NCBI GenBank assembly: GCA_947629845.1
Contig: CANRFD010000001.1
Coordinates: 1-35,309 of the forward strand
Origin: an uncultured Clostridia bacterium
GTDB taxonomy: Bacteria; Bacillota; Clostridia; Christensenellales; Borkfalkiaceae
Reading direction: 5' to 3'
Length of the DNA stretch: 35,309 nt
The position numbers and the translations under genes were made by a program. Below, in pieces: positions 1 to 33,150 of the stretch. A model generated the notes under the pieces. It had not been told where the DNA came from, did not search any database, and saw only the letters and a list, made by a program, of their open reading frames with translations. How positions within the stretch are numbered: position 1 is the stretch's first letter; each line of letters starts with the position of its first letter.

Positions 1-3000
1 GATGATGGCCTGCACTTCGCCCGAGCTCAAAAAGGCGCCCTGCACGCGGAGGCAGTTGAACATGCCCTCGGTGCGGAAGAGCATATCGCCGTTGCCGAGC
101 AGCTTTTCCGCCCCCGTCTCGTCGAGAATGGTGCGGGAGTCCACTTCCTGAATGACGCGGAAGGCGATACGCGTGGGCAGGTTGCCCTTGATGACGCCCG
201 TGATGACGTCCACCGAGGGACGCTGCGTGGCGATGACGAGGTGGATGCCCGCGGCGCGCGCCTTTTGGGCGATGCGCTGGATGCGCTCCTCGATGTTCTT
301 CTTCTCGACCGACATGAGATCGGCGAGCTCGTCTACGACGATGACGATCTTGGGCAGTTTTGCCTCGTCCTCGGTGCGGACGCTGTTGTATTCGTCCACG
401 TTGCGGACGGTGATGTGCTGTTCCCTCGTCTTTTGTTCGAAGAGGCGGTATCTGCGCTCCATCTCCTCGATCGCCCACTTGAACGCCATGACCGCCTTCT
501 GCGCGTCGGCGATGATCTCGTTGATCATGAGATGGGGCAGCCCGTCGAACACAGCGAACTCCACCTTCTTCGGGTCGATGAGAATGAGCCGCAGATCCTC
601 GGGGGAATATTTGCAGATCAGGCTGATGAGCATCGCGTTGAGACAGACCGACTTGCCCGAGCCCGTCGACCCCGCGATGAGCAGGTGCTTCATCTTGGCG
701 ATGTTGCCGCACACGCTCTTATTTTCGACGTCCTTGCCGATGACGAACATCAGCGAGCCTTCCTTGGCGTTGACGTATTCGTCCGCCTCCAAAACGGAGC
801 GGATGCCGACGGTGGCGCGGTGCACGTTGGGGACTTCGATGGAGATGGTGCCCGACGCGGTGTTGGCGTACATATTCACGCCGTCGCGGGCGTGCAGGCG
901 AAGGGCGATCTCCTTGTCGCGCTTGATGACCGTTCCCACCGTGATGTTGCGGGGGATATCGATATCGTAACGGGTAACGGCGGGGCCCGTCGTCACCTTT
1001 ACGACCTCGGCGTCCACCTTGAAACCCGCGAGGGTATCCACGATGGTGGCGGTGTTGCGCTCGATCTCGTCCTGCGACATGTTTACGGTGTCGTCATACA
1101 CGCTGAAGTTCGCGGTGCTCGGCTTCACATACTCGCGGTAGATGTGCCTTGCGGGCGCGGGCGCAGGTTTTTCCTCCCCCGCGTCGAAGGACGAAGCGGA
1201 GTCGAACGAGCTGCGCGAAGAGGTGCGCGTGCGGGGCGTGCGGGGAGCGATCTCGGGTTCCTCGGCAAAGTCTCCCCCATCGGAAAAGTCATCGTCGTCG
1301 AAGAGGTCGGCGTCGCTGACGGGGGCGCGGAACACGCGGCTGTCGGGATCGGGCAGGTCGTTCTCCGCGGGGGCGCGGTAGCCGCCGTCGGGAGAGAGGT
1401 CGGACGGCGCGGCCGTGCGGGGGCTCTCCTGCGAAACGTCGGGCGGGATCCGCGACGCGGGCGGCGTCTCGGGTTGGTTAAAGCGGGAAGCCGGCGGGTT
1501 GTCGTCAAACGGGAGCGGCTTTTCGATGTGCGTGCGCTCCTCCAACGGGCGGGAGAACAGGCTTCTGAAGCCCGCCTCTCTGCCGGCGTTATCGATTTGT
1601 TCGGGCGGCGTTTCGGGTTGGGCGAAACGGGACGCAGGCGGCGTTTCGGGCTGAGCAAAACGCGACGCGGGCGGCGTTTCGGGTTGAGCGAAGCGCGAAG
1701 CGGGCGGCGTTTCGGGTTGGGCGAAACGCGACGCGGGCGGCGTTTCGGGTTGAGCGAAGCGCGAAGCGGGCGGCGTTTCGGGTTGGGCGAAACGCGAAGC
1801 GGGCGGCGTTTCGGGCTGAGCAAAACGCGATGCGGGCGGCGTTTCGGGCTGCTGCGGACGGGGCGCGGGTTCATCGTACACATTGGGCTGCGAGGAGAAC
1901 TCGGGCTCTACGTCGTGGGCGTAGTAGTTGCGGTTTGCGGGCTCCGCGGGTTCCTGCGGGGCGCGGTAGGAAGGCGTCTGGGTGTAGTTGGCGTCGTAAT
2001 CTTCCTGCACGGGGTAGGAATAGCCGCCGTCGGCGTGCGGGCGTTCCTCCGTGACCTTGCGCGGGAAGGCGGGACGGGGCTCCTCCGCATGGGCGGCGTA
2101 GCTCTCCGAATACCCAAGGGGCGCGGAGGGCGCAGCGGGCGGCGTATTTGCGGGCGGGGCGTAGGAAGTTGCGGGCGGCGTGTAGGGCGCGGGGCCGCTT
2201 CCGCCCGATCCCCCCACGACGTTGCTGCCGCGGGCATGGGTGTTGAAATAGGAGTCCCTATCGTAGATGAGATTGGAGCGGTAGTTGGAGGCGGGGTCGC
2301 TGCCGAACAGGATCTCCCGCCCTTCCGCCGCCCTGTCGTATGCGGGGCGCTGCGCTGCGGCACGGGGCTGCTCGGGAGCCGCATAGGGCTGCGGCGACTG
2401 CGGCATCTGCGCCCGCGCGGGATCGGGAAGATCGCCGAACTGCATCGCGCCGGGGTAGGGACGAGCCCCCTCCGTGCGAACGTCGGCGGCGGGCGTTTCG
2501 CTGTGGGCGGCCCTCGGGCGGGCGGAGCGCTTCATCCGCTCGCGAAGGGGTGTGGCGCGCAGGAAGAAATACACCGCAAGCACCGTGAGCAGCGAGAAGA
2601 ACACATAGGCGCCGACGTCGGTGACGAGCGCGCAGACGGGGAAGGCGACGATGCCGAGAATGACGCCCCCGCCCGTGGAATTTGCGGCACCGCTCTCCGC
2701 AGCATGCCAGCAGGCCGACATGTAGCCGCCGAAGCCGAGTTCGGCATAGGAGGGCGCCGTTGCGACGTGCACGATGAAGAACGCCGCCAACGCCACGAGG
2801 GCGCCGCGCAGCACGAGCTTCAAGTCGATGGGGCTCTTCCCGATGACGAGCGAAAGAGAGAGATAGGCGATAAGCAGCAGCGCCGGATAGGCGGCAAAGC
2901 CCAACGCGCCGCAAAAGAAGGCCGTGATCGCCAGCCCCACGTCTCCGAAGAGATAGGGGCCCGTGACCGCGATCAAGAAAGCGATCGTGGAGAAGAGCAG

Positions 3001-3084
3001 CAGCGTCATACCGACCGTCTCCCGCGAAATCATCTTGCTCTTTTTTTCTTTCTGTTCATCCTTTCCCCGACCGAACCCGTTCAC
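1..3084 (-). CDS. ftsK: DNA translocase FtsK/SpoIIIE, with the 3' end running off the window at position 1. N-terminal membrane domain, long Pro/Gln-rich linker, C-terminal motor domain.
   Basis: The minus-strand frame is open from 3084 to 1 (translated by eye, no stops); it is absent from the ORF track because it has no in-window stop. The N-terminus reads VNGFGRGKDEQKEKKSKMISRETVGMTLLLFSTIAFLIAV, followed by further hydrophobic helices. The motor domain has Walker A LLIAGSTGSGKSV (about 640-680), Walker B LPKIVIVVDELADLM, and IHLVIATQRPSVDVITG. The GTG at 3084 has GGAGG 7 nt upstream; in-frame ATGs at 3033 and 3009 are alternative starts. Confidence 0.9.
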   Translation of the reverse strand, partial: MNGFGRGKDEQKEKKSKMISRETVGMTLLLFSTIAFLIAVTGPYLFGDVGLAITAFFCGALGFAAYPALLLIAYLSLSLVIGKSPIDLKLVLRGALVALAAFFIVHVATAPSYAELGFGGYMSACWHAAESGAANSTGGGVILGIVAFPVCALVTDVGAYVFFSLLTVLAVYFFLRATPLRERMKRSARPRAAHSETPAADVRTEGARPYPGAMQFGDLPDPARAQMPQSPQPYAAPEQPRAAAQRPAYDRAAEGREILFGSDPASNYRSNLIYDRDSYFNTHARGSNVVGGSGGSGPAPYTPPATSYAPPANTPPAAPSAPLGYSESYAAHAEEPRPAFPRKVTEERPHADGGYSYPVQEDYDANYTQTPSYRAPQEPAEPANRNYYAHDVEPEFSSQPNVYDEPAPRPQQPETPPASRFAQPETPPASRFAQPETPPASRFAQPETPPASRFAQPETPPASRFAQPETPPASRFAQPETPPASRFAQPETPPEQIDNAGREAGFRSLFSRPLEERTHIEKPLPFDDNPPASRFNQPETPPASRIPPDVSQESPRTAAPSDLSPDGGYRAPAENDLPDPDSRVFRAPVSDADLFDDDDFSDGGDFAEEPEIAPRTPRTRTSSRSSFDSASSFDAGEEKPAPAPARHIYREYVKPSTANFSVYDDTVNMSQDEIERNTATIVDTLAGFKVDAEVVKVTTGPAVTRYDIDIPRNITVGTVIKRDKEIALRLHARDGVNMYANTASGTISIEVPNVHRATVGIRSVLEADEYVNAKEGSLMFVIGKDVENKSVCGNIAKMKHLLIAGSTGSGKSVCLNAMLISLICKYSPEDLRLILIDPKKVEFAVFDGLPHLMINEIIADAQKAVMAFKWAIEEMERRYRLFEQKTREQHITVRNVDEYNSVRTEDEAKLPKIVIVVDELADLMSVEKKNIEERIQRIAQKARAAGIHLVIATQRPSVDVITGVIKGNLPTRIAFRVIQEVDSRTILDETGAEKLLGNGDMLFRTEGMFNCLRVQGAFLSSGEVQAII
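1604..1868 (-). repeat. Eight tandem copies (last one partial) of a 33-bp unit inside the ftsK linker, encoding a QPETPPASRFA peptide repeat
   Basis: The motif ggcggcgtttcggg recurs at 1604, 1637, 1670, 1703, 1736, 1769, 1802 and 1835, an exact 33-nt period. In the ftsK frame this gives seven exact QPETPPASRFA units. A degenerate copy (NPPASRFNQPETPPASRIPP) lies near 1440-1500. Confidence 0.9.
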
Positions 3085-3138
3085 GATAATTCCTCCGTAT
3101 GTCCCCTTACGGGGACACCGCGTATTTTTTCACCTTAC

Positions 3139-3167
3139 AGTATAGCATTTCCGCGTGGATTTTTCAA
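3139..3167 (-). promoter_or_regulatory. Putative sigma-A type promoter of ftsK (TTGAAA-17-TATACT)
   Basis: The minus strand reads TTGAAAaatccacgcggaaatgcTATACT. A GTCCCCGTAAGGGGAC hairpin and the GGAGG SD lie between it and the GTG at 3084. Confidence 0.4.
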
Positions 3168-3291
3168 TGAATTTACGCAAGATTTTCTGCCGAAATTATT
3201 TTTCTTTGCACGGAAGCCATGCTCCGCCCGCCAAAAAGCGGGAAAATTCGCCCCATGGGGGGAATTTACAGGCGGCCGTACGGGATTTGCG

Positions 3292-3325
3292 GCGCCACCC
3301 CCTACCCCCCTCCCGCGGAGGGGGC
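3292..3325. repeat. Copy of a dispersed intergenic hairpin motif, GCCACCCCCT...CCCCCTCC-cgc-GGAGGGGGCAA
   Basis: An 8-bp G/C stem pairs CCCCCTCC (3306-3313) with GGAGGGGG (3317-3324). Nearly the same sequence with the same flanks recurs at 5811-5835. Confidence 0.6.
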
Positions 3326-3344
3326 AAGAGAGGGCGGGCGGCGG

Positions 3345-3381
3345 ACAAAAGCAAAAGCCGCCCCGAGGGAAACGGGACGGC
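3345..3381 (-). terminator. Rho-independent terminator downstream of the 3411-4514 gene
   Basis: The minus strand has GCCGTCCCG-tttccct-CGGGGCGGC (9-bp stem with one G-U pair) followed by TTTTGCTTTTG. Confidence 0.6.
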
Positions 3382-3410
3382 GAACTTGTGCTATAAAATA
3401 TTTGCGGCGG

Positions 3411-4514
3411 TCAGGCCTCGGGCTCGATCTTCTTGCCGGTGGCCTTGATCTCCTTCGCGGCGATGAGCTCGTCGCGGGTGAGCGCGGGCACTTCGGTATC
3501 CTTGGGCGCGGTCTTGCCCTTCTCCAAGCCGTTCTCCTCGGCAAGGCGGGCGATGAGCACCTTTGCGTACTTGATGCGGCGCGCGGAGTCCACTTTGAAC
3601 AGCATGGGGGTCGCGGCGAAGCGCTTCATGCCCGAAACGTCCTTCCCGCGGTACTTGGTGCCTTCAAATTCCTTGGGGTCGAGCGCGAGCGCGATGCACA
3701 GCTTCTTGCCCTTGAACAGGATGGCGGCGATGCGCGTTCTGCTGACGCTCACGTTCTGCTGGCGGCGGCTGTCTCTGCGGCGCATCTTCTTGTAGCTGCC
3801 GATCTCGGTGACGAGCTCGGAATAGTAGCTCTTGATCTCCTCGGGGGCGAGCACGAGGCGCGCCTTGAAGGAGTAGGAATAGCGCACGCTGTACACCTCT
3901 TCGTCGTGCTCTGCGCCCAATACGCCGAGCGCTTCGCGAAGCGCCGGGCTCATCTGCCTGACGATGAGCGATTCGCCCGCAACGTCGGGGCGGACGGACG
4001 GCGCGCTCTCCCTCTCCTCGGGCTCGGTGGCGGCGACTTCCGCATAGACAGGCTCTGTTTCGGGCTCCGCTTCGGGCTCGTTTTCCGCGACAGGTTGCTC
4101 TTCCGCGGCCTCTTCAACCACTTCAACGGCTTCCTCTTCTGCGGCTTCTTCCTCGATCTCCTCGGCAACCTCTTCGGTCTCCTCCTCTTCGGGTTCCGCT
4201 TCGGCGACCTCCTCGGTCTCCTCGACAGCTTCCTCTTCGGGCTCCTCGGCGATTTCTTCCTCTTCGCCCTCTTCCTCGGCTTCTTCAGCCTCTTCTTCGG
4301 CCGTCTCCTCGGCGACGGGCTCCGCTACGGGCGCAGCCTCTGCGGGCTCCTCGGCCTCTTCGGCCTCCTCTGCGGGCTCCTCCGCGGCCTGCGCCTTCGC
4401 CTCCGCGCGCCTCCCGGACGCCTTCTTCACGGCGTAAGACAGCGCGATCAGCCCCACGATCGCGGCGACTACGACGACGATGATGACAATGGAAATGATC
4501 GTACCCGTTTCCAT
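3411..4514 (-). CDS. Hypothetical membrane-anchored protein: N-terminal TM helix, a Glu-rich acidic linker of roughly 150 aa, and a basic C-terminal domain of roughly 190 aa
   Basis: The ATG at 4514 has AAGGGGG upstream. The TM helix is IISIVIIVVVVAAIVGLIALSY, followed by KKASGRR, which suggests the C-terminus is cytoplasmic. A long EEAEE-type tract follows. The C-terminal part (YSFKARLVLAPEEIKSYYSELV...LCIALALDPKEF...KYAKVLIARL) looks globular and is rich in K/R. I recognise no family. Confidence 0.75.
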   Translation of the reverse strand: METGTIISIVIIVVVVAAIVGLIALSYAVKKASGRRAEAKAQAAEEPAEEAEEAEEPAEAAPVAEPVAEETAEEEAEEAEEEGEEEEIAEEPEEEAVEETEEVAEAEPEEEETEEVAEEIEEEAAEEEAVEVVEEAAEEQPVAENEPEAEPETEPVYAEVAATEPEERESAPSVRPDVAGESLIVRQMSPALREALGVLGAEHDEEVYSVRYSYSFKARLVLAPEEIKSYYSELVTEIGSYKKMRRRDSRRQQNVSVSRTRIAAILFKGKKLCIALALDPKEFEGTKYRGKDVSGMKRFAATPMLFKVDSARRIKYAKVLIARLAEENGLEKGKTAPKDTEVPALTRDELIAAKEIKATGKKIEPEA

Positions 4515-4557
4515 GCTAAAAATACCCCCTTCGTTTGTTTTTTCGGATTATGGTACG

Positions 4558-4586
4558 ATTATATCGCTTTTTTGTCGAAAAAGCAA
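4558..4586 (-). promoter_or_regulatory. Putative promoter of the 3411-4514 gene (TTGCTT-17-TATAAT)
   Basis: The minus strand reads TTGCTTtttcgacaaaaaagcgaTATAAT, about 40 nt upstream of the ATG. Confidence 0.45.
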
Positions 4587-4649
4587 ACAAAATTCCCGTA
4601 TTTTTTGCATGTTTTCACAGCGTTTTACAATTTTTTTCAAAAAAATTCT

Positions 4650-5408
4650 CTATACCATGCTCTCGAGAATGAGCTTATCCGCGACAAGTGCGATAAATTC
4701 GCTGTTCGTCGGCTTCTCCGTGCCGATGTAGACGCGTGCGCCGAAGATGGCGTTCACCGCGTCGATGCGCCCGCGGTTCCACGCGACTTCGATGGCGTGG
4801 CGGATGGCGCGTTCCACCTTGCTGGCGGAGGTGTTGAACCGTTCGCCGATGATGGGATACAGTCCCTTCGTCACATTATTGATGATATGGGGGTCGTTTA
4901 CCGCCATTTTTATGCCCTCGCGCAGGTAGTTGTAGCCCTTGATGTGCGGCGGGATGCCGATGGAGATGAAGATGTTGGAAATGCGCTCGTCGAGGGAGCC
5001 CGGGCGGCGGCGTTCGAACTTGTCGTGGGTGCCGACCGCCTCTGGCCCCGCCGAAAGTTCCACCGCGCGGCTGCCCACGATCTCCGCGGAGACGGGCTTC
5101 ATGAAGTAGTACCGCGCCCCGAGGGCAATCGCACGGTTGATAATGGCGTCGTCGGAAAAGTTGCCGAGTACGATGAAGTCCGTCTTTTTGCCGCTGTGCT
5201 TTGCCTCTTCGAGAACGGTAAAACCGTCCATGTTTTTCAGGAACAAGCTGACGACTGTGACGTTGGGAGAAAATTTATCGAGAAGTTTGAGCCCCTCTTC
5301 CCCGTCGCCCGTCACGCCGCAGACCTCGCAGTCCTTCTGTGCCGTAAAATATGCCGCAAGTTCGCCGGCAAATTGTTCGTTGCTTTCCATGATCAAAATT
5401 TTTTTCAT
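4650..5408 (-). CDS. spo0A: Spo0A-family sporulation master regulator, with an atypical receiver domain that lacks the phospho-acceptor Asp
   Basis: The C-terminal domain carries the Spo0A signature IGIPPHIKGYNYLREGI...NTSASKVERAIRHAIEVAW...KPTNSEFIALVADKL. The N-terminal 120 aa align without gaps to the B. subtilis Spo0A receiver. Key residues differ: ADDN becomes MESN, and LVLDIIMPHLDG becomes TVVSLFLKNMDG. Confidence 0.9.
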   Translation of the reverse strand: MKKILIMESNEQFAGELAAYFTAQKDCEVCGVTGDGEEGLKLLDKFSPNVTVVSLFLKNMDGFTVLEEAKHSGKKTDFIVLGNFSDDAIINRAIALGARYYFMKPVSAEIVGSRAVELSAGPEAVGTHDKFERRRPGSLDERISNIFISIGIPPHIKGYNYLREGIKMAVNDPHIINNVTKGLYPIIGERFNTSASKVERAIRHAIEVAWNRGRIDAVNAIFGARVYIGTEKPTNSEFIALVADKLILESMV

Positions 5409-5440
5409 TGATTTTTCCGCCTTTTTTTGAGAGTAATCGC

Positions 5441-7658: not shown

Positions 7659-7726
7659 GTAAATTGAGCTACTTCCCTCCGCGTCCGCAAAAAATTCTCT
7701 GCCCCACGGGAAGGGGAGGCTCGTGC

Positions 7727-9904
7727 TTAAGGCTCGGAACGCTCGTAAATGCGGCCGGTATCACCCGTGACGAGCGCGTCGCGGATGGTCTCCTGCGGGG
7801 AATCCCATTCAAACACGGTGTCGTAACGGAAAAATCCGAGCGTTTGCCACACGCTGCCCTCGGGCAGGCTGAAAGACGTGAGCCGCTGGCAGCGGGAGAA
7901 GGCGTTCGGCTCGATGCGTACGACGCCGCCGGGCACGGCAATGGAAGTGAGCGTCGTACAGTTGCGGAAGAGTGAATCGGCGATGACCTCGAGCGAGGCA
8001 GGAAGATGCACTTCCGCAAGGCGGACGCACCCCTCGAAGGCGCGTGCGCCGATCTCCTGCACGCCGTCCGGAATGTGGACGGAGCGAAGCGCCGTGCAAC
8101 CCGAGAAGGCGTCCTCGCCGATGCGAAGAAGCGAATCGGGGATCTCCACCGCCTCGAGCACGTTCCCGCCCCTCTTCACGGGAGCGGAGAATTCTGTGAC
8201 GGGCAGTCCGTCGAGCTCCTCGGGGATGTCGAGTTCGCGCATGTCGTATTCCCGCACATAGACGGCAAGAGAGCCGTCCTCCTTGACGTCGTAGTAGAAG
8301 CCGTCCGCATAGCCGTCGTTCGCCGCCTGCACCGTGTAGAGGCGGGCACAGACGATGCCGAATACCGACACGGCGGCGACGATGAGCGCGAGCACCTTGA
8401 TGGCCATCACGATCACGCCGTTCTCACGGCCGTTCTCACGGTTGCGCTCGACGTAGTTCCATTCGTCCGCCATGCTGTACATTGTGCCGAATCCCACCAA
8501 CAGCGAGAAGGCGAAGTACACCCACAGCCAGTCGTGCATGTTGTCCGTAAACCAGCCGATGAGAATGCAGACCGCCGCAAGCACACCCACCGCGGCGAGC
8601 CCCACGGCGATGAAAACCGTACTCTTCCCGCGGAATTGCAGGAAATCAAAGGCGAAATGCAATAGGATGATGGCCGAGAGAATGCCTGTCATGACAAGGC
8701 AGATTTTTTCTTCGGGCGAACCCAAAACGACGCGCACGGCGTACGGCTCGGAGAGAAGGAACAAAAGCACCGCAAGCTCGGCAAGCCCCAGGATGACATG
8801 CACGGCGACGGTGAACGCGATATGCTTCTTCAAATACTCGCTCGTGCGTTCCAAAATACTTGTTTTGGCGACGTGCGCCTGCGCCGGCTTCGTCTTTTGA
8901 TTTTGTGTGCGCGCCCGTCTCTCCGCTTTCTCCCGCGCCGCAGAAGCGCGCGAGGCGTGCGAACTTTCTTTGCGCCCGCGGGCGAGCTCGCAACACCGCT
9001 TGACGTGATTTAATACCTTGGGGTAGGCGTCGGGCTTTGTGAAGTCTATCCCCTCCACCCTGCCGTTGCGCTGCGGCAAACGCTCGATGGGCGTGCCCTT
9101 GAACACGATCGTGAGCGCGTCGCTCTCCTTCTGCCTGCCGTCCGCAAGCTCAAGAAAGCGCATGTATTCGTTCTTCACCCACTTCGTCGTGAGATATTCC
9201 TCGCGGAAACAGACGAGGATCATGGCGGGCGACTTCACGAGGGCGTACAGAATGCGCGCCTCGTAGTCGGTACCGGTGCTGTGCGCCATCTCCGCCTCCG
9301 AATAGAAGGGACGAAGCCCCTGCTCCTTGAGATAGTCATAGAGCTTGTAGGCGGCGTGGCTGTCGGGCGTGCTCTCTCCGTTGGCGTCCGTTATCTTGGC
9401 GGAGATGAACACGTCGTAGTCCAGTCCGCGCTTTTGAAATTCGAAAAATTTGTTGCGGATGTCGTCGATCTCCGCACCGCGCTCCAAGTAGACGGCGCGC
9501 TGCTCGGCGTCGGCAAGGGAGAGGGCTCGGCAGAATTCCTCGCTCTCCGTAAACCGCTTCTTCGTGATAAGGTGGCAGATGGGATGCAGACGGGTCTCGT
9601 CGACGTCGTCGCGCAGATAGCGCACGCGGAAAAGCGCTTGCGCCATACCGAAATACGCCTCGGGTTCCTGCCTATCTAACTCCGCCGCCTTTTGATATGC
9701 GGAATACGCCTCGTCGAAGCGGCACATATCTATCTCATGTTCGCCGAGACGGAGCGCATCTAAAACGGCGGAGGAAGTCCCCCGCCGCGGCAGCGTCCAC
9801 CGCGAGTTGCAGTAGCGGCACCGCACGATCCCGCTCGCCGTGGAAATATCGAGCGGGGCGCCGCAATTTTTACATTGAAACGTAGCGCTTACCCAATCCG
9901 ACAC
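7727..9904 (-). CDS. Multidomain membrane protein: N-terminal zinc ribbon, TPR-like helical region, TIR domain, 5 predicted TM helices, and a C-terminal BspA-type leucine-rich repeat domain
   Basis: The zinc ribbon is CKNCGAPLDISTASGIVRCRYC. The TIR-like core is YDVFISAKITD...GLRPFYSEAEM...ILVCFREEYLTTKWVKNEYMRF (about 9060-9418). Five hydrophobic segments lie at about 8331-8822. The LRR_5-like repeats read IPDSLLRIGEDAFSGCTALRSVHIPDGVQEIGARAFEGCVRLAEVHLP (about 7730-8330). The start is placed at GTG 9904, which has AAGGAGA 9 nt upstream. The track start at 9955 falls inside the predicted promoter spacer. Confidence 0.85.
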   Translation of the reverse strand: MSDWVSATFQCKNCGAPLDISTASGIVRCRYCNSRWTLPRRGTSSAVLDALRLGEHEIDMCRFDEAYSAYQKAAELDRQEPEAYFGMAQALFRVRYLRDDVDETRLHPICHLITKKRFTESEEFCRALSLADAEQRAVYLERGAEIDDIRNKFFEFQKRGLDYDVFISAKITDANGESTPDSHAAYKLYDYLKEQGLRPFYSEAEMAHSTGTDYEARILYALVKSPAMILVCFREEYLTTKWVKNEYMRFLELADGRQKESDALTIVFKGTPIERLPQRNGRVEGIDFTKPDAYPKVLNHVKRCCELARGRKESSHASRASAAREKAERRARTQNQKTKPAQAHVAKTSILERTSEYLKKHIAFTVAVHVILGLAELAVLLFLLSEPYAVRVVLGSPEEKICLVMTGILSAIILLHFAFDFLQFRGKSTVFIAVGLAAVGVLAAVCILIGWFTDNMHDWLWVYFAFSLLVGFGTMYSMADEWNYVERNRENGRENGVIVMAIKVLALIVAAVSVFGIVCARLYTVQAANDGYADGFYYDVKEDGSLAVYVREYDMRELDIPEELDGLPVTEFSAPVKRGGNVLEAVEIPDSLLRIGEDAFSGCTALRSVHIPDGVQEIGARAFEGCVRLAEVHLPASLEVIADSLFRNCTTLTSIAVPGGVVRIEPNAFSRCQRLTSFSLPEGSVWQTLGFFRYDTVFEWDSPQETIRDALVTGDTGRIYERSEP

Positions 9905-9945
9905 GTTCGCCCGTCTCCTTTTTTCGCATTCGTAGTTTTGAGATA

Positions 9946-9974
9946 AGTATATCACATCCTGCTTTTGAAGTCAA
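9946..9974 (-). promoter_or_regulatory. Putative promoter of the TIR-LRR gene (TTGACT-17-TATACT)
   Basis: The minus strand reads TTGACTtcaaaagcaggatgtgaTATACT, about 40 nt upstream of GTG 9904. Confidence 0.5.
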
Positions 9975-10012
9975 GTAAACGGCGCGAAAAGCGCCCTTCC
10001 CACCGCGGCGCC

Positions 10013-10040
10013 TTGACAAATTTCCTATGTTGCCTATAAT
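10013..10040 (+). promoter_or_regulatory. Near-consensus promoter (TTGACA-16-TATAAT) ending 7 nt before the ADH ATG
   Basis: TTGACA is at 10013-10018, TATAAT at 10035-10040, and the ATG at 10048. There is no SD between them. Confidence 0.5.
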
Positions 10041-10047
10041 AAGACAT

Positions 10048-11250
10048 ATGAACATATTCCGAAAAACCTATTGCAGAGTCGTTCACCTCGGGCTGAAGCT
10101 CGCGTCGCCCTTTTTGCCCTACCGCATGCCGCGATCTTGCACGTACGAAGCGGCGGCGCAGGCGCTCCGCAATGCGGGCAAGGGGCGGCTTTTGCTCGTC
10201 ACGGGGAAAAACGTCCGCGCACGCGGGCTGTGCGAACCCCTGCTTTCCGCCATGAAAACCGCGGGCATGGAGACGGAGATCTTCGACGCCGTGCCCGCCG
10301 ATCCCACCGTTGCCTGCGTGGAGGCGGCGGTTTCCCTCTACCGCGAAAGGGGGTGCGACTGCGTTGCGGCGGTGGGCGGCGGCTCCCCCATGGACTGCGC
10401 CAAGGGCGTGTGCGCGCGGGCGGCTTCCCCCAAGCGGCCGCTCAAGGCGATGAAGGGCGCGCTGAAGGTGAAGGGCAAAGTTCCCCCCTTCCTCGCCGTT
10501 CCCACGACAGCGGGCTCGGGGAGCGAGATGACGGCGGCCGCCGTGTTCACCGACGGCGAGGCGCACGAGAAGTTCGCCGTGTTCTCCTACAAACTCGTGC
10601 CGGAATTTGTGCGGCAGGATCCCGCGCTCACCCTCTCCCTTCCCCCCGCCGTGACGGCGGACACGGGCATGGACGCTTTGACCCATGCGGTGGAGGCGTA
10701 CATCGGGCGGGCGACGGCGAAAACCTCGCGAAATTATGCGGAACTCGCAGCGTTTGCCGTTTTTTCGCATCTTCCGCGGGCATATGCGGAGGGAAACGAC
10801 CTCGGCGCACGGCGCGAAATGCTTGTTGCGGCGGGCAATGCCGGCGCGGCGTTCACCCTCTCCTATGTGGGGTATGTGCACGCGCTCGCACATGCGCTCG
10901 GGGGCGCGTACGGGCTGCCCCACGGGAGGCTCTGCGCCGCCCTTCTGCCCCACGTCCTGCGCGCCTACGGCAAAAAGGCGCATAAAAAACTCGCGCGGCT
11001 CGCCGTCCGTTGCAAGCTGTGCGAAGAAAAAACACCCCGAAGCGAGGCGGCGGAACTGTTCATCCGCAGGGTGGAAACGCTCTCCCGCGAAGTCGGCATT
11101 CCGCAGCGGCTCCCCATCAAAAAAGAGGACATCCCGCAGCTCGCCGCCCGCGCCGCAAGGGAGGCCAACCCCCTCTACCCCGTGCCCAAACTCTTGGACA
11201 GGGGCGAACTTGAGACCGTTCTGCACGCCGTTCGGAAGAAGCGGGAATAA
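10048..11250 (+). CDS. Iron-containing (group III) alcohol dehydrogenase family protein
   Basis: Family motifs are present: GGGSPMDCAKG, VPTTAGSGSE, DALTHAVEAY and HALAHALGGAYGLPHG. The N-terminus MNIFRKTYCRVV is typical of the family. The ATG at 10027 lies within the promoter spacer and was rejected. Confidence 0.85.
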   Translation: MNIFRKTYCRVVHLGLKLASPFLPYRMPRSCTYEAAAQALRNAGKGRLLLVTGKNVRARGLCEPLLSAMKTAGMETEIFDAVPADPTVACVEAAVSLYRERGCDCVAAVGGGSPMDCAKGVCARAASPKRPLKAMKGALKVKGKVPPFLAVPTTAGSGSEMTAAAVFTDGEAHEKFAVFSYKLVPEFVRQDPALTLSLPPAVTADTGMDALTHAVEAYIGRATAKTSRNYAELAAFAVFSHLPRAYAEGNDLGARREMLVAAGNAGAAFTLSYVGYVHALAHALGGAYGLPHGRLCAALLPHVLRAYGKKAHKKLARLAVRCKLCEEKTPRSEAAELFIRRVETLSREVGIPQRLPIKKEDIPQLAARAAREANPLYPVPKLLDRGELETVLHAVRKKRE

Positions 11251-11257
11251 AAAAACA

Positions 11258-11278
11258 GCCGCCGGGATCGCCGGCGGC
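11258..11278. terminator. Hairpin between convergent genes, with a clear T-run only on the minus strand
   Basis: GCCGCCGG-gatcg-CCGGCGGC is an 8-bp G/C stem. An A7 run lies on its plus-strand 5' side, giving TGTTTTTTT after the hairpin on the minus strand, downstream of the DUF368 gene. Confidence 0.6.
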
Positions 11279-11283
11279 AACGT

Positions 11284-12357: not shown

Positions 12358-12573
12358 TCAATAGTTTTTTCTGCCGAGCAAATAATCGATATCTTCGTGA
12401 AAATAATCCGCTATTTTGCAGAGATTTTCAAGCGAGACCTCCCGTTGACACAGCAAATACCGCGAGATCGTCGGCTGCGGAATGCCGACCCGTTTGGAGA
12501 ACTCCCGAACGGACAGCTCCCCTATCAGCTCCTTCAAATTTTGCGCAAACGTCTCCGAATATTTGGTTGCCAT
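12358..12573 (-). CDS. XRE-family helix-turn-helix transcriptional regulator (about 71 aa)
   Basis: The sequence MATKYSETFAQNLKELIGELSVREFSKRVGIPQPTISRYLLCQREVSLENLCKIADYF fits the Cro/CI-type HTH pattern. The start is uncertain: ATG 12573 is preferred, with 12591 and 12648 as alternatives. Confidence 0.75.
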   Translation of the reverse strand: MATKYSETFAQNLKELIGELSVREFSKRVGIPQPTISRYLLCQREVSLENLCKIADYFHEDIDYLLGRKNY

Positions 12574-12605
12574 ATGATTTTCCCATGCCATTTTACATAA
12601 AATGC

Positions 12606-12671: not shown

Positions 12672-13928
12672 ATGGGAGATACCAACGGGTTCCGCATTGA
12701 AAACGGGAAACTCATAAGTTATACCGGTGACGATTTGGAAATCATCATCCCGGACGAAGTGACGGAGATCGGCAGCAGCGTCTTTGCAAATTCCGGCGTG
12801 CGCAAGGTCGTCATCGGCGACTCGGTCAAAATTATCGGCTTCTGTGCGTTCAGAAATTGCAAAACACTCATGGAGGTCAGCCTTACAAACGGTTTGGAGG
12901 AAATCGGCGCGTCGGCATTTGAAGGCTGTGTCGGTTTGCAAAAAATTCATATCGGAGACTCGGTCAAGGCTATCGGTTCAGAGGCTTTCAAAAGTTGCAG
13001 GACGCTCATGGAAGTTTACCTGTCAAAGGACTTGGAAGAGATTAGCGCATCGGCGTTCGAAAGCTGTGCCAGTCTGCAAAAAATCTATGGCGGTTCCAAA
13101 ATAAAGCGCATCGGCGACGCTGCATTTCAAAAGTGCCCCATCGCGGAATTTGATTTCAGCAGCGTGACAAGTATTGGCGCAGAGGCCTTTTCCGATTGCA
13201 AGTTGACCGAAGTCACGTTCGGGCGCGGCCTCGCTTTTTTGGGGCGCAGCGCGTTTTCGGGTTGCTCAAATTTAACATCGGTAATCTTCGACGCCGACTC
13301 ACCGTTGGAAACGATTGAGGAACACGCATTCGAGAATTGCTCTGTAACAAATTTGCAGCTACCGTCACATTTGAAAAAAATCGGAGAACGTGCATTTCAC
13401 TACCCCGACAACTATAGAGTCACTCGAAAAGAAATTATCCTTCCCGACTCACTGAAGATCATCGAAGAGTATGCGTTTGACGATTCTAAATTTGAGCTGA
13501 TAATCATACCTTACGGTGTAACGCACATCGGCGCCAAAAGTTTTGATGAAGCATGGAAAATCGTCCTACCGGAAGTCTTTCGAGCTCAAATCTCCAACAT
13601 CGTTGGCTCTAATACGAAAGTAATTTACTATCAAACCGAGGAGCAATATGAAAGGCTCAAAGAATACGGCTTTTTAATGGATGGCGGAGATCTGATAAAA
13701 GTTGTAAGGAAACTCTCCTTAATCAACTTTCCGGACTTTGTAACGCGGATCTGCCGCGGCGCAATTGTTGACTGCGGCCTTTACAGCACCATGATCCCCG
13801 AAGATACCGTAATAGAAGAGGGCGCCTTCAACTGCCCCACTCTGAAGTATGTTACCGTTTCAAAGCAATACAAGAAAAAACGGAAACTGTACTTCGGCAA
13901 ATACAAAATCAAATACACTTTCATATAA
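12672..13928 (+). CDS. BspA-type leucine-rich repeat (LRR_5-like) protein with no signal peptide
   Basis: Units such as IGSSVFANSGVRKVVIGDSVKIIGFCAFRNCKTLMEVSL and EEIGASAFEGCVGLQKIHIGDSVKAIGSEAFKSCRTLMEVYL repeat along the protein. A strong SD is present. The gene is noticeably more A+T-rich than its neighbours. Confidence 0.85.
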   Translation: MGDTNGFRIENGKLISYTGDDLEIIIPDEVTEIGSSVFANSGVRKVVIGDSVKIIGFCAFRNCKTLMEVSLTNGLEEIGASAFEGCVGLQKIHIGDSVKAIGSEAFKSCRTLMEVYLSKDLEEISASAFESCASLQKIYGGSKIKRIGDAAFQKCPIAEFDFSSVTSIGAEAFSDCKLTEVTFGRGLAFLGRSAFSGCSNLTSVIFDADSPLETIEEHAFENCSVTNLQLPSHLKKIGERAFHYPDNYRVTRKEIILPDSLKIIEEYAFDDSKFELIIIPYGVTHIGAKSFDEAWKIVLPEVFRAQISNIVGSNTKVIYYQTEEQYERLKEYGFLMDGGDLIKVVRKLSLINFPDFVTRICRGAIVDCGLYSTMIPEDTVIEEGAFNCPTLKYVTVSKQYKKKRKLYFGKYKIKYTFI

Positions 13929-15543: not shown

Positions 15544-18066
15544 CTATCCGTCCGATCGTAAGATGAACTTCACCTCCGCGTCCTCTTCCGCCTGTACGGA
15601 GAAGGTGACGGCGGCGACGTCCGCGTCGGGTGCGGAGAGCCCGGTGTTCAGGGGGAAGCCTCCGTCGCGCCGCTTCACTTCAAAGGGCACGCCAACGCCG
15701 TTCACATACACGCACACGACGCGCCCCGCCCCCTTTACGAGGTGATATTTCACGGTGATCTCGCGGCGGGCAACGGCACGGGGGCCTGAAAACCGCCCTT
15801 CCGCCCCCTTGAAGCGCACGGCATAGGCATTCTCCCCGGGCAAATACTGCGCCGAATACCCGCTCTTTCTGAACTCCCCGAGCTTGTACGCCGTGGTCTC
15901 GCCGTCGTCCTCGTAGAGGTAGCCTTCGTCGCCGTCCGTCCCGGACGGGTAGAAGTCATAGACGAGTTTGGAGGGATCCTGCGCCTTGGTGGTCTGCGCC
16001 GCCCCGATGAGCGGGATGAGCGACCCGAGCCGCACAAAGAGGGGCATCGACCTGAGCCCGTACGCCTTTTTGATGACGCGCCTGCCCGCATAGACGGCGC
16101 CGTCGAATACGTCCAGCCACCTCCCCTCGGGAAGATAGACTTCGCGGGCGTTTCCCTCCCCCGTCTCCGCGGTATACAGCCCGAGAAAGGCTTCGCCGCC
16201 CGCCTGAAAGTAGAAGATCTCCAAGGTGTGTTCCACGCCGGGCTCGAGGTCGGCAAGCGCGTTGAGCGTCGCCGAGTGCATATTTTCATCCTTCAAAACG
16301 CATTTGCCGTCGAGGTAGACGGTCGCGCCGTCGTCGTTGCGTATGTACAGCCGTTCGGCGGCGTCGAGCACGATCTTGGTTCTGATCTTTGCCGAAAAGT
16401 CATAGACGGGAACGCCCTCCATAGGCGGTTCGTGGCGCAGATCCATGAACACGCTCTTCCAGACGGCGTGCGCGATGGGTTCGCCCTCCCACGCCCTGCC
16501 GCGGTAAAATTCCACCTCCACGGGCGCGGTGTAGTTTTTCTCGGCCAGCCGCTTGGGAACGGCCCCGCAGAGGGGCGCGATGAGAAGGTCTCTGCCGAGG
16601 AGATATTGGTTCCTGCACTTTGCCGCCCGCCTGTCATCGGGGTATTCGAGCGCAAGGGAACGGAACATGGGCACGCCCGTTTCGTACCCCTCCCGCGCGT
16701 TTGCGTACATGTAGGGCAGGAGGCGGTAGCGCAGCAGCGCGTATTCCCGCACGATGTCGAGCGTCTCTTCGTCATACAGCCACGGTTCGCGGTAGCGCTG
16801 CACGGAGTTGGTGCAGTGCGGGCGGAACACGGGCGAGAGCGTGCCGTATTGCATCCAGCGGATAAATTGCTCCTTGTCGGGATTGCCCGTGTGGCCGCCG
16901 CAGTCGGAATTCATATACCCGATACAGTTTTCCGAGCAGCGGACGAGGTTCTCCACCTCCTGCGCGAGCGAATAGGCGCAGCTGCCGATGTCCCCCGTCC
17001 ACTGGATGCCGTAGCGGTGGGAGGCGCTGTCCGCAATGCCGCGGTAGATGCCGTTGGAGATATCGACGACGTTCCCCATCACGACGGGGCGGCGGTAGAC
17101 CTGCGGATCGCCCGCGGCCTCCCTGTAAAAGCGCTCCGTGACGTCGTGATAGAGGTAGAGCCCCAGCGTCTCCCACTGCACGCTCTTGGTGGGCGAGACG
17201 AGGTGGGTGTGCCAATTCCTGTCGTACCACCACGTATCCAGCCCCATCTTCAGCAGCCTGCGCAGGTGCTTTTCGCGATAGGCGATCTCCCGGGGGGCGA
17301 ACACGCTTGCGCCGCGGACGGGTTCGGGGTGGTCGTTGAACATCACCTCGACGCCGCGGCCGTGCGCGAACGCGAGAAACTTCTTCATGTCGGGGAACAA
17401 GTTCCTGTTGATCTCGTAGCCCGTGCCGCTCTCGGCGACGCGCCAGTCGGTATCGATCACGAGATTGTCGAGCGGAACGCCGTATTTCTCGTAGTCAAAG
17501 ATGACCTGTTTGGCCTCTTTTTCGCTGTAAGCGTAGTATTTGGAGTTCCAGCCGCCGAGGGTGGCAAGGCGCACCAGCTCGCTCCTGCCCGTCAGGGCGA
17601 CGTAGAGGCGGCGGAGCTTTTTTGCGTCCCCGTCCGCAAAGATCAGGTAGAGATCCTTCACCCGCTCATAGATGCGGAAGTTCCCCTCCCTCGCCGCGGA
17701 ATAGCCGCCCGCGGGAACGAGGATGCGCGGACAGTCGGAGAGCGCAAAGACGGACGGCGTCCGCTGCGGCGGCGGAAGTTCGCCGCTGTTTTTGATGCGC
17801 TTGTAGCGGTAGACGGTCTTGCCGTCCCGCTCGACGCGGAGCCCGGAAAAGGCCTCCCCTTCGGGAAGATACACCGTATAGTCGCCTATACAGAGTACGT
17901 TTTCCTCGAGGGCGTAGTCGGGCGTCTCCCCCGCGAGGCCTGCGCGGTCGGGGATGAAGAAGGTGTTTTCGTCGCAAAATCCGCCGCGGAAGGCGTGTTC
18001 TATGCGCAAAACGTCCCGCCCCAAAAAACTTATACGGAAATTTCCGAAAAACAAGGTATTCTGCAT
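15544..18066 (-). CDS. Glycoside hydrolase family 31 enzyme with a PA14-like insert, predicted cytoplasmic (no signal peptide)
   Basis: GH31-like blocks are present: LVIDTDW, GLDTWWYDRNW (nucleophile region), GIQWTGDI, MQYGTLSPVFRPH and YLPEGRWLDVFDG...MPLFVRLGSLIPL. The PA14-like segment reads GATVYLDGKCVLKDE...HTLEIFYFQAGGEAFLGLY. The SD is GGAGAG, and the start lies 1 nt after the upstream stop. Confidence 0.88.
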   Translation of the reverse strand: MQNTLFFGNFRISFLGRDVLRIEHAFRGGFCDENTFFIPDRAGLAGETPDYALEENVLCIGDYTVYLPEGEAFSGLRVERDGKTVYRYKRIKNSGELPPPQRTPSVFALSDCPRILVPAGGYSAAREGNFRIYERVKDLYLIFADGDAKKLRRLYVALTGRSELVRLATLGGWNSKYYAYSEKEAKQVIFDYEKYGVPLDNLVIDTDWRVAESGTGYEINRNLFPDMKKFLAFAHGRGVEVMFNDHPEPVRGASVFAPREIAYREKHLRRLLKMGLDTWWYDRNWHTHLVSPTKSVQWETLGLYLYHDVTERFYREAAGDPQVYRRPVVMGNVVDISNGIYRGIADSASHRYGIQWTGDIGSCAYSLAQEVENLVRCSENCIGYMNSDCGGHTGNPDKEQFIRWMQYGTLSPVFRPHCTNSVQRYREPWLYDEETLDIVREYALLRYRLLPYMYANAREGYETGVPMFRSLALEYPDDRRAAKCRNQYLLGRDLLIAPLCGAVPKRLAEKNYTAPVEVEFYRGRAWEGEPIAHAVWKSVFMDLRHEPPMEGVPVYDFSAKIRTKIVLDAAERLYIRNDDGATVYLDGKCVLKDENMHSATLNALADLEPGVEHTLEIFYFQAGGEAFLGLYTAETGEGNAREVYLPEGRWLDVFDGAVYAGRRVIKKAYGLRSMPLFVRLGSLIPLIGAAQTTKAQDPSKLVYDFYPSGTDGDEGYLYEDDGETTAYKLGEFRKSGYSAQYLPGENAYAVRFKGAEGRFSGPRAVARREITVKYHLVKGAGRVVCVYVNGVGVPFEVKRRDGGFPLNTGLSAPDADVAAVTFSVQAEEDAEVKFILRSDG

Positions 18067-18067
18067 A

Positions 18068-19027
18068 TCAATTTCTCTCCGCTTTGAGTACTTTTCCCTT
18101 CGCCGTCAGCGGGCAGATGCGCGCGGTGCGGCAATCGGGCAGCGACCTGTCTGCCGAATAGTCGCGGGCGTGGTATACGAGGTACAGCTTGCCGTCTTCC
18201 TCGATGACGCTGTTGTGCCCCGTCCCCTCCTCCTCGGAATTGCGGCACAGAAGGGGCGCGTAGATGTCTGCGGACGGCTGCTTTTCGAAGCGCAGCCTGC
18301 GGACGTCGTTCTCCCGCCCGTGGGCGTAGGCGTAGCCGAGGAAGTACTTCTCGTTCTGGTAGCAATTCCCCGAGTAGGTGACGTAGTGGTCGTCGCCGAC
18401 GCGGAAATAGAACGCGCCCTCGACGGTGTGCCAATTCTGCCCCTTTTTGAAGCGGTCGTACATGAAGATCTCCTCGTCGAGCGTGGGGACGACGATGGGC
18501 ACGGGCTTCCCCTCCGGGGTGAACATATCCAAAAGTTTGTCCGCCACAATATAGGTACCCGCACGCTCCGCCGTCCAATCGTTGACGGAGTAGAAGATGT
18601 AGTACGCTTCCCCGCTCTTCACGACGTGCGGGTCGATGGAGAAGGCGGGCAGAATGGTCTTGCGGTAGACGAAGGGGCCCTCGGGCGAAGAGCTCGTCGC
18701 AACTTTTATGGCCTGCTCGTGCATGTCCTCCGTGCCCGACGGTACCGACGAATAGTACATGTAGAATACGCCGTCCCGTTCGATGACGCAGGGCGCCCAA
18801 AATTCCGTCATGCCCGCTTCGGCGAGCGTTCTGCCGAGGTACTTCCAGCCGCCGAGCAGGCGGTCGGAGGTAAACGTTTCCACCCCGCAGATGCCCGTCG
18901 CGTAGATGTAGTATTTTCCGTTTGCCTTTAAGATGTAGGGATCGCCCTGCGATGCGGGCGCGCCCTCTTCGGGGTGAATGAGTTTCATGGCCGAATAAAG
19001 ATGTGCGCCGCGATGACTGCGGCGCAC
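18068..19027 (-). CDS. Glycoside hydrolase family 43 enzyme (five-bladed propeller type), predicted cytoplasmic
   Basis: GH43-like blocks are GDPYILKANGKYYIYATG, FWAPCVIERDGVFYMYYS, IDPHVVKSGEAYYIFYS and TVEGAFYFRVGDDHYVTYSGN. GTG 19027 has AAAGGAGAA upstream; ATG 18988 (MKLIHPEE) is an alternative start. Confidence 0.82.
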   Translation of the reverse strand: MRRSHRGAHLYSAMKLIHPEEGAPASQGDPYILKANGKYYIYATGICGVETFTSDRLLGGWKYLGRTLAEAGMTEFWAPCVIERDGVFYMYYSSVPSGTEDMHEQAIKVATSSSPEGPFVYRKTILPAFSIDPHVVKSGEAYYIFYSVNDWTAERAGTYIVADKLLDMFTPEGKPVPIVVPTLDEEIFMYDRFKKGQNWHTVEGAFYFRVGDDHYVTYSGNCYQNEKYFLGYAYAHGRENDVRRLRFEKQPSADIYAPLLCRNSEEEGTGHNSVIEEDGKLYLVYHARDYSADRSLPDCRTARICPLTAKGKVLKAERN

Positions 19028-19039
19028 ACGTTCTCCTTT

Positions 19040-22801: not shown

Positions 22802-22813
22802 CGTTCTCCCTCC

Positions 22814-24718: not shown

Positions 24719-24733
24719 CTCTCTCCTCCTTGA

Positions 24734-26711: not shown

Positions 26712-26722
26712 ACGCGCCTCCT

Positions 26723-28525: not shown

Positions 28526-28564
28526 GATGATCCTCCTTTTTTATCGTTCGATCGAGGTTTCCCG

Positions 28565-28582
28565 CCCCCGACGGATCGGGGG
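28565..28582 (-). other. G/C hairpin without a U-tract between the Big_2 lipoprotein gene and the SBP gene
   Basis: CCCCCGA-4 nt-TCGGGGG is a 7-bp stem sitting in the 85-nt intercistronic gap. No T-run follows it on either strand. Confidence 0.4.
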
Positions 28583-28610
28583 AAGCCGAAGGGAGCGGGA
28601 AGGATGTCGA

Positions 28611-33126: not shown

Positions 33127-33150
33127 CGTTCGCCCTGCGGGAATTTCCCG

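Follow-up and report, generated by a model that had tools for sequence, protein, structure and literature searches.

Can one bacterial polypeptide hold a leucine-rich repeat (LRR) sensor on the outer face of the membrane and a TIR enzyme on the inner face, as an animal Toll-like receptor (TLR) does with its own LRR and TIR domains? The question is raised by a gene at 7727..9904 on the minus strand of a 35,309-nucleotide stretch of DNA from an uncultured Clostridia bacterium (contig CANRFD010000001.1 of GenBank assembly GCA_947629845.1; the whole stretch is called the window below). It encodes a protein of 725 residues, for which an original prediction, made from the letters alone, had claimed a TLR-like layout. 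At about even confidence we propose that the protein is a polytopic membrane receptor-enzyme whose TIR domain would cleave NAD+ when the LRR domain binds a ligand, with a role in biological conflict or in envelope surveillance. Judged by sequence comparison, it is the syntenic, fast-evolving member of a very large family of gut Clostridia whose shared TIR module carries many different sensors or anchors at its C-terminal end. The gene and the parts of its product are the following.

7727..9904, minus strand: coding sequence, 725 residues plus stop (zinc ribbon, TPR, TIR, five transmembrane helices, LRR_5), from the list of open reading frames (ORFs), Pfam and AlphaFold2; entry P0001 of the homologue search is identical at 100% coverage
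9797..9880, minus strand: N-terminal four-cysteine zinc ribbon, residues 9-36 (C11, C14, C29, C32); cysteines at least 90% conserved in the family, beta-hairpins modelled at 26-28 and 35-37
9632..9772, minus strand: TPR-like helical repeat, residues 45-91, with the conserved EPEAYFGMA; from TPR_11, consensus TPR proteins in the PDB and a predicted local distance difference test score (pLDDT) above 90
9428..9631, minus strand: family-specific beta-hairpin and helices joining TPR to TIR, residues 92-159, with invariant P108 and conserved C110; from alignments and AlphaFold2
9005..9427, minus strand: TIR domain, residues 160-300; from TIR_2, Foldseek and phmmer matches to the TIRs of RUN1 and Roq1
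9167..9169, minus strand: codon of Glu246, the candidate catalytic glutamate in KWVKNEY; from the translation and the RUN1/Roq1 alignment, invariant in all family alignments made
8825..9004, minus strand: long basic helical linker into the first transmembrane helix (TM1), residues 301-360, rich in K, R and E; modelled helices 293-338 and then 347-391
8330..8824, minus strand: five-helix membrane domain, residues 361-525; from hydropathy, AlphaFold2 and conservation in orthologues
7835..8317, minus strand: predicted extracellular BspA-type LRR, residues 530-690, about five to six repeats of 23 residues; from LRR_5, PDB and Foldseek matches, pLDDT 83-97

The TIR module and its candidate catalytic glutamate

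The TIR domain is recognized by the Pfam profile TIR_2 (PF13676) at 9e-9 and 36.3 bits, above the gathering cut-off of 28 (homologues score 28.7-43 bits), and in an AlphaFold2 model built with 41 family sequences, which reaches a pLDDT of about 90 at residues 8-330 and 530-680, it adopts the flavodoxin-like five-strand alpha/beta fold of TIR domains. Foldseek superimposes this part on the TIRs of MyD88, MAL, SARM1, TIR-STING, SPARTA, RPP1, L6 and TcpB with a probability of 1.00 and target TM-scores of 0.6-0.7; against the SPARTA TIR the root-mean-square deviation is 2.9 Å over 144 columns. Profile and fold thus bear out the TIR-like domain of the original prediction, which had named the Pfam search and a structure model as checks; the model also supports the five helices and the LRR solenoid.

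Searches of the PDB by sequence gave less. With the full protein, phmmer returned LRR and TPR proteins and no TIR, a profile of the N-terminal module matched only designed TPR proteins, a TIR-only profile was dominated by spurious matches to designer PPR repeats, with RUN1 at an E-value of 0.0014, and the same kind of profile trimmed of its PPR-like stretch gave zero matches. When the TIR region by itself was compared with PDB sequences by phmmer, EEYLTTKWVKNEY aligned with ENYARSRWCLDEL of RUN1 and with KNYASSTWCLEEL of Roq1; within this region EEYLTTKWVKNEYMRF pairs with ENYARSRWCLDELVKI of RUN1 (E 0.067 with the single sequence, 0.0014 with the family profile) and with KNYASSTWCLEELVKI of Roq1. 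By this alignment Glu246 of WVKNE falls in the same column as the E of WCLDE in RUN1 and of WCLEE in Roq1, residues of the plant TIRs that are known to be catalytic (E100 in RUN1).

Alignments of 12, 18 and 41 family sequences show no variation at W242, N245, E246, Y247 and R249, and Glu246 and Trp242 share this invariance with some 30 further residues of the TIR module despite the otherwise fast divergence of the family. As judged from these alignments, the TIR domain keeps the glutamate and the tryptophan of the W-x-x-x-E motif known from NAD+-cleaving TIR domains, and it is a probable NADase. The original prediction had put the glutamate of WVKNE at the catalytic position of TIR NADases and had named poor conservation of this residue as an argument to the contrary; the alignment with RUN1 and Roq1 agrees with the assignment, and the residue does not vary.

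The N-terminal 330 or so residues form a compact cytoplasmic module of a zinc ribbon, one TPR-like repeat, the family-specific insert and the TIR domain. That it is one compact unit follows from its model when folded alone, with a pLDDT of 89 and a predicted TM-score of 0.83. Its zinc ribbon is matched weakly by Pfam, and the cysteines are spaced CxxC-x14-CxxC, one residue more than the x13 first given; the TPR-like repeat is found by TPR_11 at 5e-5 and 23.2 bits, under the cut-off of 26.8. Foldseek found no solved structure like the whole zinc ribbon-TPR-hairpin-TIR module.

Predicted orientation of the membrane domain and the repeats

Five hydrophobic helices follow the TIR module by hydropathy, and five helices are present in the AlphaFold2 model (TM1 about 362-385, TM2 about 401-422, TM3 about 429-452, TM4 about 459-479 and TM5 about 497-523). 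TM4, WLWVYFAFSLLVGFGTMYSMA, is marginal at a strict Kyte-Doolittle threshold; it passes in orthologues, in which its sequence is conserved as WLWV[YF]FAF. All five helices are kept in the orthologues L024, L063, L073, L074, L042 and L045, together with the motifs SYPFA after TM1, CILIGWF in TM3 and WLWVYFAF in TM4. The linker that leads into TM1 is poorly conserved (11-29% identity to orthologues). The five-helix domain, for which Pfam has nothing significant (best E 0.15-0.6, all under the cut-off), may be a transducer domain of its own kind that has yet to be named.

The charges favor an N-terminus inside the cell: 8 lysines and arginines lie in the linker before TM1 and the loops after TM2 and TM4, which would be inside, versus 3 in the presumed outer loops, and the same count favors this orientation in nearly all family members that have both membrane helices and LRRs. 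The loop after TM4 contains three arginines. The loop DEWNYVERNRENGRENG, described in the original prediction as positively charged, does hold three arginines but is net acidic.

Helix parity was used as an independent check of topology, on a sample of 243 distinct family members. Twenty-two of these have helices between TIR and LRR, namely five helices in ten members, three in nine, one in one and four in two, so that odd and even numbers stand at 20:2 with the strict threshold and at 21:1 with a relaxed one; the 725-residue protein is one of the two four-helix cases under the strict threshold and has five helices under the relaxed one. Among members with helices and no LRR the ratio is 46 odd to 51 even (n = 97, with 1 to 12 helices), and the contrast has a Fisher p of 2e-4, uncorrected for phylogeny. 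An independent subgroup with three helices has the same parity and a strongly basic second loop, for example KGKRKT. Because of helix parity, the positive-inside bias and the conservation of the five helices, the orientation with the N-terminus inside and the LRR domain outside is well supported, though still a prediction. The odd helix count and the outward LRR of the original prediction are thus supported: an even count, which it had named as the result that would speak against it, was looked for by hydropathy, in the AlphaFold2 model and in the parity of the family, and five helices were found.

The LRR domain itself is assigned with ease. LRR_5 (PF13306) matches at 1.1e-25 and 90.4 bits versus a cut-off of 27.7, phmmer against PDB sequences finds 4fs7 (3e-54), 4gt6 and the TpLRR protein 6mlx (3e-27), and Foldseek again finds 6mlx (9.5e-11) and other BspA-type LRR structures. 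The BspA type named at the outset is therefore confirmed by both the profile and the TpLRR-like solenoid. The best match in NCBIfam is the LRR adhesin HupY/LrrG; the zinc-ribbon matches there are spurious.

Family, relation to known systems and proposed mode of action

The protein is no one-off but belongs to a family of thousands. The family was sized by an exhaustive profile search (a word-indexed query with the N-terminal module returned fewer matches than the full-length query), in which a profile of this module found 3,816 representatives of 50%-identity clusters at E<=1e-30 and 7,092 at E<=1e-3; the 725-residue protein scores 553 bits against it. The module of about 330 residues is constant, with 45-55% identity to 50 and more members, and the C-termini vary; all its family motifs are present here, namely the four cysteines, EPEAYFGMA, P-I-C, YD-F-x-x-K, PF-SE, G-x-x-YEA-x-ILYAL and W-V-x-NEY-x-R. 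When one genome was scanned for each species, 110 encoded relatives were found. The relatives lie nearly all in uncultured gut Clostridia annotated as Christensenellaceae/Christensenella or Candidatus Coproplasma and in the cultured Pumilibacter muris, and several metagenome-assembled genomes (MAGs) have 3-5 or more copies. Two paralogues are often found a few kb apart, in tandem or flanking an AAA/protease cluster (L002 13568-16294; L081 1-3143; L018/L060, which are on one 26-kb contig). None of the seven clusters looked up carries an informative name, one homologue being labelled with the generic "hypothetical protein", and in the literature searched neither a bacterial LRR-TM-TIR protein nor this zinc ribbon-TPR-TIR family is described. 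Two papers that had come up as leads were set aside as unrelated, PMC13114140 (a Christensenellaceae peptide and the TIR of human TLR4) and PMC11237479 (the CesT/Tir chaperone).

What follows the TIR module in the 243 members falls into four layouts.

LRR_5 without a membrane helix: 100 of 243 members (41%)
Membrane helices without LRR: 98 of 243 members (40%)
Neither helices nor LRR: 23 of 243 members (9%)
Helices and then LRR, the layout of the 725-residue protein: 22 of 243 members (9%)

In the members of the first layout the LRR is cytoplasmic, there being no membrane helix. One of them, P0005 (913 residues), has a 4Fe-4S dicluster ferredoxin domain between its TIR module and its LRR_5 (residues about 393-453), which marks its LRR as cytoplasmic and hints at redox sensing. 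The TLR-like layout is thus one of several results of a shuffling of domains around a TIR module that stays the same.

The gene also has a fixed place. Its five-helix relatives L024, L063, L073 and L074, in four MAGs, lie directly upstream of an orthologue of the ABC-F gene of the window (L001 is the same locus as L024), which with the window makes at least 5 species, and the arrangement glutamate dehydrogenase (GDH)-DUF368-TIR-TM-LRR-ABC-F recurs in another MAG. Across the syntenic genomes ABC-F is 88-91% and GDH 83% identical, while for the TIR-LRR protein the identity is 46-49% over the N-terminal module, only 28-36% over the membrane domain and 43-50% over the LRR. Judged by the shared position, and by these identities set against those of ABC-F and GDH, the gene is inherited vertically at a fixed site and evolves roughly five times faster than its neighbors.

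Paralogues stand in other settings. At about 16 of 76 genome loci a family member lies within a recurrent gene cluster (L081 3175-10784, L002 5267-13546, L021, L022, L051, L068, L072, L075) that encodes an SPFH/Band_7 protein with a double zinc ribbon, a small protein with one transmembrane helix, two conserved unknown proteins of 195 and 187 residues (68-79% identical across species), a double-AAA ATPase with IetA as best PADLOC match (1.4e-36; TRIP13 2.5e-22), the zinc ribbon-TPR-TIR protein and a trypsin-like protease. This cluster, which is absent from the window, is a candidate for an uncharacterized multi-gene system. Members with three helices and LRR are found directly after an SPFH gene. 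These contexts hint at a membrane-proximal, conflict- or stress-related function for part of the family. A soluble TIR-LRR member (P0011, L083 8001-9764) lies between purM (AIRS) and purN (Formyl_trans_N) in a purine-biosynthesis operon, a setting that the window likewise lacks.

How far does the likeness to known TIR systems go? As in the animal TLRs, a single chain would have its LRR outside the membrane and its TIR on the cytoplasmic side, and clustering of the TIR domains induced by a ligand is a plausible common logic. TLRs are type I single-pass proteins, whereas here the TIR is N-terminal, the LRR C-terminal and the membrane is spanned five times; there is no signal peptide and there are no LRRNT/LRRCT caps, the repeats are of the 23-residue BspA/TpLRR type, and the protein has a zinc ribbon and a TPR in addition and an NADase-type W-x-x-x-E in its TIR. 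The BB-loop region reads FYSEAEMAHSTGTDYEA and lacks RDxxPG, the box 2 BB-loop motif of signalling TIRs (PMC7075850). The resemblance to TLRs is therefore topological only, a case of convergence and not of homology. What stands of the animal TLR arrangement seen in the original prediction is the LRR-out/TIR-in topology; the reversed order, the five spans, the LRR class, the catalytic-type glutamate and the missing box 2 do not agree with it.

The plant receptors RUN1, Roq1, RPP1 and L6 provide the best sequence matches of the TIR, with Y-x-x-[ST]-x-W-[CV]-x-x-E aligned free of gaps, and have the same order of an N-terminal TIR and a C-terminal LRR. The protein differs from them in having no NB-ARC/STAND ATPase, an inserted membrane domain and another class of LRR, and the similarity is weak (E 0.001-0.07). 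The bacterial TIR defence proteins (Thoeris ThsB, TIR-STING, SPARTA TIR-APAZ and AbTir) have in common with it the TIR fold as seen by Foldseek and the logic of a sensor-effector fusion, and single-gene TIR-TM and TIR-TPR proteins of E. coli defend against phage (PMC11350192). Unlike those systems the protein has no PADLOC match, no partner effector and no defence-island context: its neighbors are ABC-F, an Fe-alcohol dehydrogenase, DUF368, GDH and Spo0A, and no Thoeris-type ThsA-like effector (SIR2, SLOG, Macro or TM) is adjacent. An extracellular sensor is without precedent among them, and the TM-plus-LRR features of TLRs seem to be absent from bacterial TIR systems (PMC11350192). SARM1 is among the top Foldseek matches (7cm7, 7djt) and, like the protein described here, has a helical-repeat domain packed N-terminal to its TIR. 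Its catalytic motif is presumably WVHKE, similar to WVKNE. By analogy, the helical repeat packed against the TIR suggests an auto-inhibition that would be released on activation; the 725-residue protein differs from SARM1 in having neither ARM nor SAM domains, no evidence for an octameric ring, and a membrane-embedded part. The C-terminal domain is a clear member of the BspA/TpLRR LRR_5 surface proteins of gut bacteria and spirochaetes (4fs7, 4gt6, 6mlx), which in contrast are secreted proteins or lipoproteins without a cytoplasmic enzymatic module. Its sequence places the protein in the TIR_2 and LRR_5 families and, plausibly, among the NADase-type TIRs.

We propose that the protein, with its N-terminus in the cytoplasm and its LRR outside, would bind an extracellular or cell-surface ligand by the LRR. 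Binding would alter how the membrane domain and the linker helices pack or cluster and thereby draw the TIR domains together. TIR NADases form their active site through self-association. The assembled TIR domains would then cleave NAD+, either depleting it or generating an ADP-ribose-derived signal. A role in biological conflict or envelope surveillance, directed at phage, competitors or surface damage, is the most likely outcome and at the same time the least secure step; it is favored because the bacterial TIR enzymes characterized so far all act in defence (PMC11350192), because the protein evolves fast and because paralogues adjoin an IetA-like ATPase and a protease. A wider reading, which we put forward only tentatively, is that of an outside-in TIR receptor in which the extracellular LRR would recognize a surface or environmental ligand and switch on the cytoplasmic TIR enzyme, a functional and convergent analogue of a TLR. 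The family, with thousands of variants and several paralogues per genome, would then be a lineage-specific sensory or immune repertoire of TIR proteins in Christensenellaceae-like gut bacteria, germline-encoded and diversified, with cytoplasmic and surface members.

Several observations weigh against the proposed receptor-enzyme with a role in conflict. AlphaFold2 gives the membrane domain a low pLDDT of 40-65, and the topology is predicted from hydropathy and parity. The sequence similarity of the TIR to solved NADase TIRs is weak (the E-values of 0.067 and 0.0014 given above), and the best Foldseek matches include the non-catalytic MyD88 and MAL. The LRR of this family is not inherently a sensor of outside cues, since it is cytoplasmic in 41% of the members and accompanied by a 4Fe-4S domain in P0005. 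The genes of the window serve carbohydrate use and housekeeping, and none of a defence or mobile kind was found among them, the phage, plasmid and IMG/VR collections contain no relatives, and PADLOC run on the protein gave 0 matches. Synteny in at least 5 species together with several paralogues per genome is more what one would expect of a signalling family than of a typical mobile defence gene.

This last point leads to the rival that has to be taken most seriously, although we rate it as doubtful: an ordinary signal-transduction receptor whose TIR makes a nucleotide second messenger (a cyclic ADP-ribose isomer or similar), the protein being the surface-sensing paralogue of a family comparable to those of GGDEF proteins or histidine kinases. 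The fixed locus, the number of paralogues and the diversity of sensors fit such a family almost as well: a constant enzymatic module is combined with very diverse sensors and anchors, several MAGs have at least 3-5 paralogues per genome, the position beside ABC-F is conserved, one paralogue sits in the operon of purine biosynthesis, and neither a link to mobile elements (phage, plasmid, IMG/VR) nor a PADLOC match is found. What speaks for conflict instead is that neither the window nor the loci inspected showed a receiver of such a messenger (SLOG, Macro, SAVED or similar), that the characterized bacterial TIR enzymes are all defensive (PMC11350192), and that a divergence some five times faster than that of the neighbors suits conflict better than housekeeping signalling. 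Were the TIR a non-catalytic scaffold, the protein would be a membrane-anchored LRR adhesin of the surface or an organizer of the envelope whose cytoplasmic part serves for clustering or localization. The scaffolding proteins MyD88 and MAL among the top Foldseek matches, the adhesin HupY/LrrG as best NCBIfam match, the cell-surface proteins as nearest LRR structures and the association of paralogues with an SPFH/Band_7 membrane scaffold are all in its favor; we consider it unlikely, as the invariance of Glu246, Trp242 and about 30 other residues of the TIR module in a fast-diverging family fits an active site, and as an adhesin role leaves the 41% of soluble members with a cytoplasmic LRR unexplained.

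Two further rivals concern the architecture. If TM4 did not span the membrane or were re-entrant, the count would be even, the LRR cytoplasmic and the membrane domain a mere tether of an intracellular TIR-LRR sensor. TM4 does fall under the strict hydropathy threshold, the membrane domain is modelled with low confidence, family member P0142 counts four helices, and most LRRs of the family are cytoplasmic, with a stand-alone LRR_5 protein without a signal peptide encoded 3 kb away; against these stand the conserved TM4 sequence WLWV[YF]FAF, which is over the threshold in orthologues, the three arginines in the loop after TM4, the odd number of helices in 20-21 of 22 TM-LRR members versus 46:51 in the control, and the parity and strongly basic second loop of the independent three-helix subgroup, so that we regard an LRR on the inside as quite improbable. 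Descent of the whole architecture from a common ancestor with the animal TLRs, or its transfer, has for it only the shared domain types and the LRR-out/TIR-in topology. With the reversed domain order, five spans versus one, repeats of the BspA/TpLRR type, a TIR nearest by sequence to RUN1 and Roq1 that has the catalytic glutamate and is missing box 2, and a layout that domain shuffling has produced in only a minority of the members of a bacterial family, true homology to TLRs is extremely improbable and effectively refuted.

What is known of bacterial TIR proteins is their part in anti-phage systems, in which they act as sensors in the cytoplasm or generate signals. One more TIR fusion is not astonishing, but a surface sensor on a bacterial TIR and a TIR repertoire rich in paralogues in gut commensals are unusual. 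If the receptor-enzyme proposal is true, the TM-plus-LRR gap noted in PMC11350192 would be closed by a surface-sensing version, represented by this gene together with about 9% of its family. The protein is a variant among the TIR sensor-effector fusions, and its family (at least 3,800 clusters at 50% identity) appears undescribed in the literature searched. The members of the family make up a natural series, with the LRR inside the cell in some and outside in others, and with membrane anchors or other domains joined to the TIR module elsewhere, which is useful for studying how TIR enzymes are switched on, and with at least one cultured host, Pumilibacter muris, experiments are feasible.

Gene boundaries and neighborhood

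The ORF on the minus strand spans 9955..7727 and would give 742 residues from 9955; a GTG at 9904 gives the intact product of 725 residues. The signals read around the gene are these.

9915..9919, minus strand: AGGAG as ribosome-binding site, 10 nt before the GTG; direct sequence reading
9946..9974, minus strand: sigma-70-like promoter TTGACT-17-TATACT with TG extension, about 40 nt 5' of the GTG; a consensus match only, at 10 of 12 positions
7689..7716, minus strand: weak terminator-like element, a CCCC-7 nt-GGGG stem-loop followed by a T6 run; sequence reading

The GTG at 9904 is the preferred start, as read from the sequence, because AGGAG stands 10 bases before it, because the promoter-like site overlaps the start at 9955, so that a transcript beginning from 9974..9946 would start downstream of 9955, and because in the family alignments all homologues start a few residues before the first cysteine pair. 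For the last two reasons, the overlap and the homologues' beginning at the zinc ribbon, the 742-residue version was rejected. The gene is probably monocistronic, given the weak hairpin after its stop codon and the separate promoter-like site of the ABC-F gene downstream. A promoter of its own, as claimed in the original prediction, is thus consistent with the consensus match, whereas the claimed terminator-like hairpin stands only in part: a stem of 4 GC base pairs with T6 is there, but a terminator scan did not call it.

The genes of the window include Spo0A, ABC-F, the TIR-LRR gene, an Fe-alcohol dehydrogenase, a DUF368/VCA0040-like membrane protein, an LRR_5 protein, GDH, glycoside hydrolases and a sugar ABC transporter. 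The TIR-LRR gene stands alone among housekeeping genes, as the original prediction had it, with ABC-F downstream and the Fe-alcohol dehydrogenase and DUF368/VCA0040-like genes upstream. Two genes downstream, at 4650..5408 (minus strand), lies a Spo0A orthologue (Spo0A_C 4.5e-39), which marks an endospore lineage of the Clostridia. The long ORFs without Pfam matches at 241..3396 (plus), 3219..5411 (plus), 9952..11280 (minus) and similar ones were discarded as shadow ORFs opposite real genes, typical at about 60% GC.

The gene at 12672..13928 (plus strand) encodes the stand-alone LRR_5 protein of 418 residues (Pfam 1.2e-75), without signal peptide or transmembrane helix. It lies in a patch of low GC (45-49% versus about 60%), is inserted between the DUF368 gene and GDH relative to L001, and looks like a horizontally acquired gene for a cytoplasmic BspA-type LRR protein; a small ORF of the XRE helix-turn-helix type stands beside it on the minus strand (about 12370..12575). 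The region 15544..35298 is devoted to carbohydrate utilization, with two GH31/PA14 proteins, one GH43 and an ABC sugar transporter (SBP_bac_1 and two permeases), and also encodes a Big_2 surface protein of 1,478 residues and a Listeria-Bacteroides-repeat protein of 1,253 residues.

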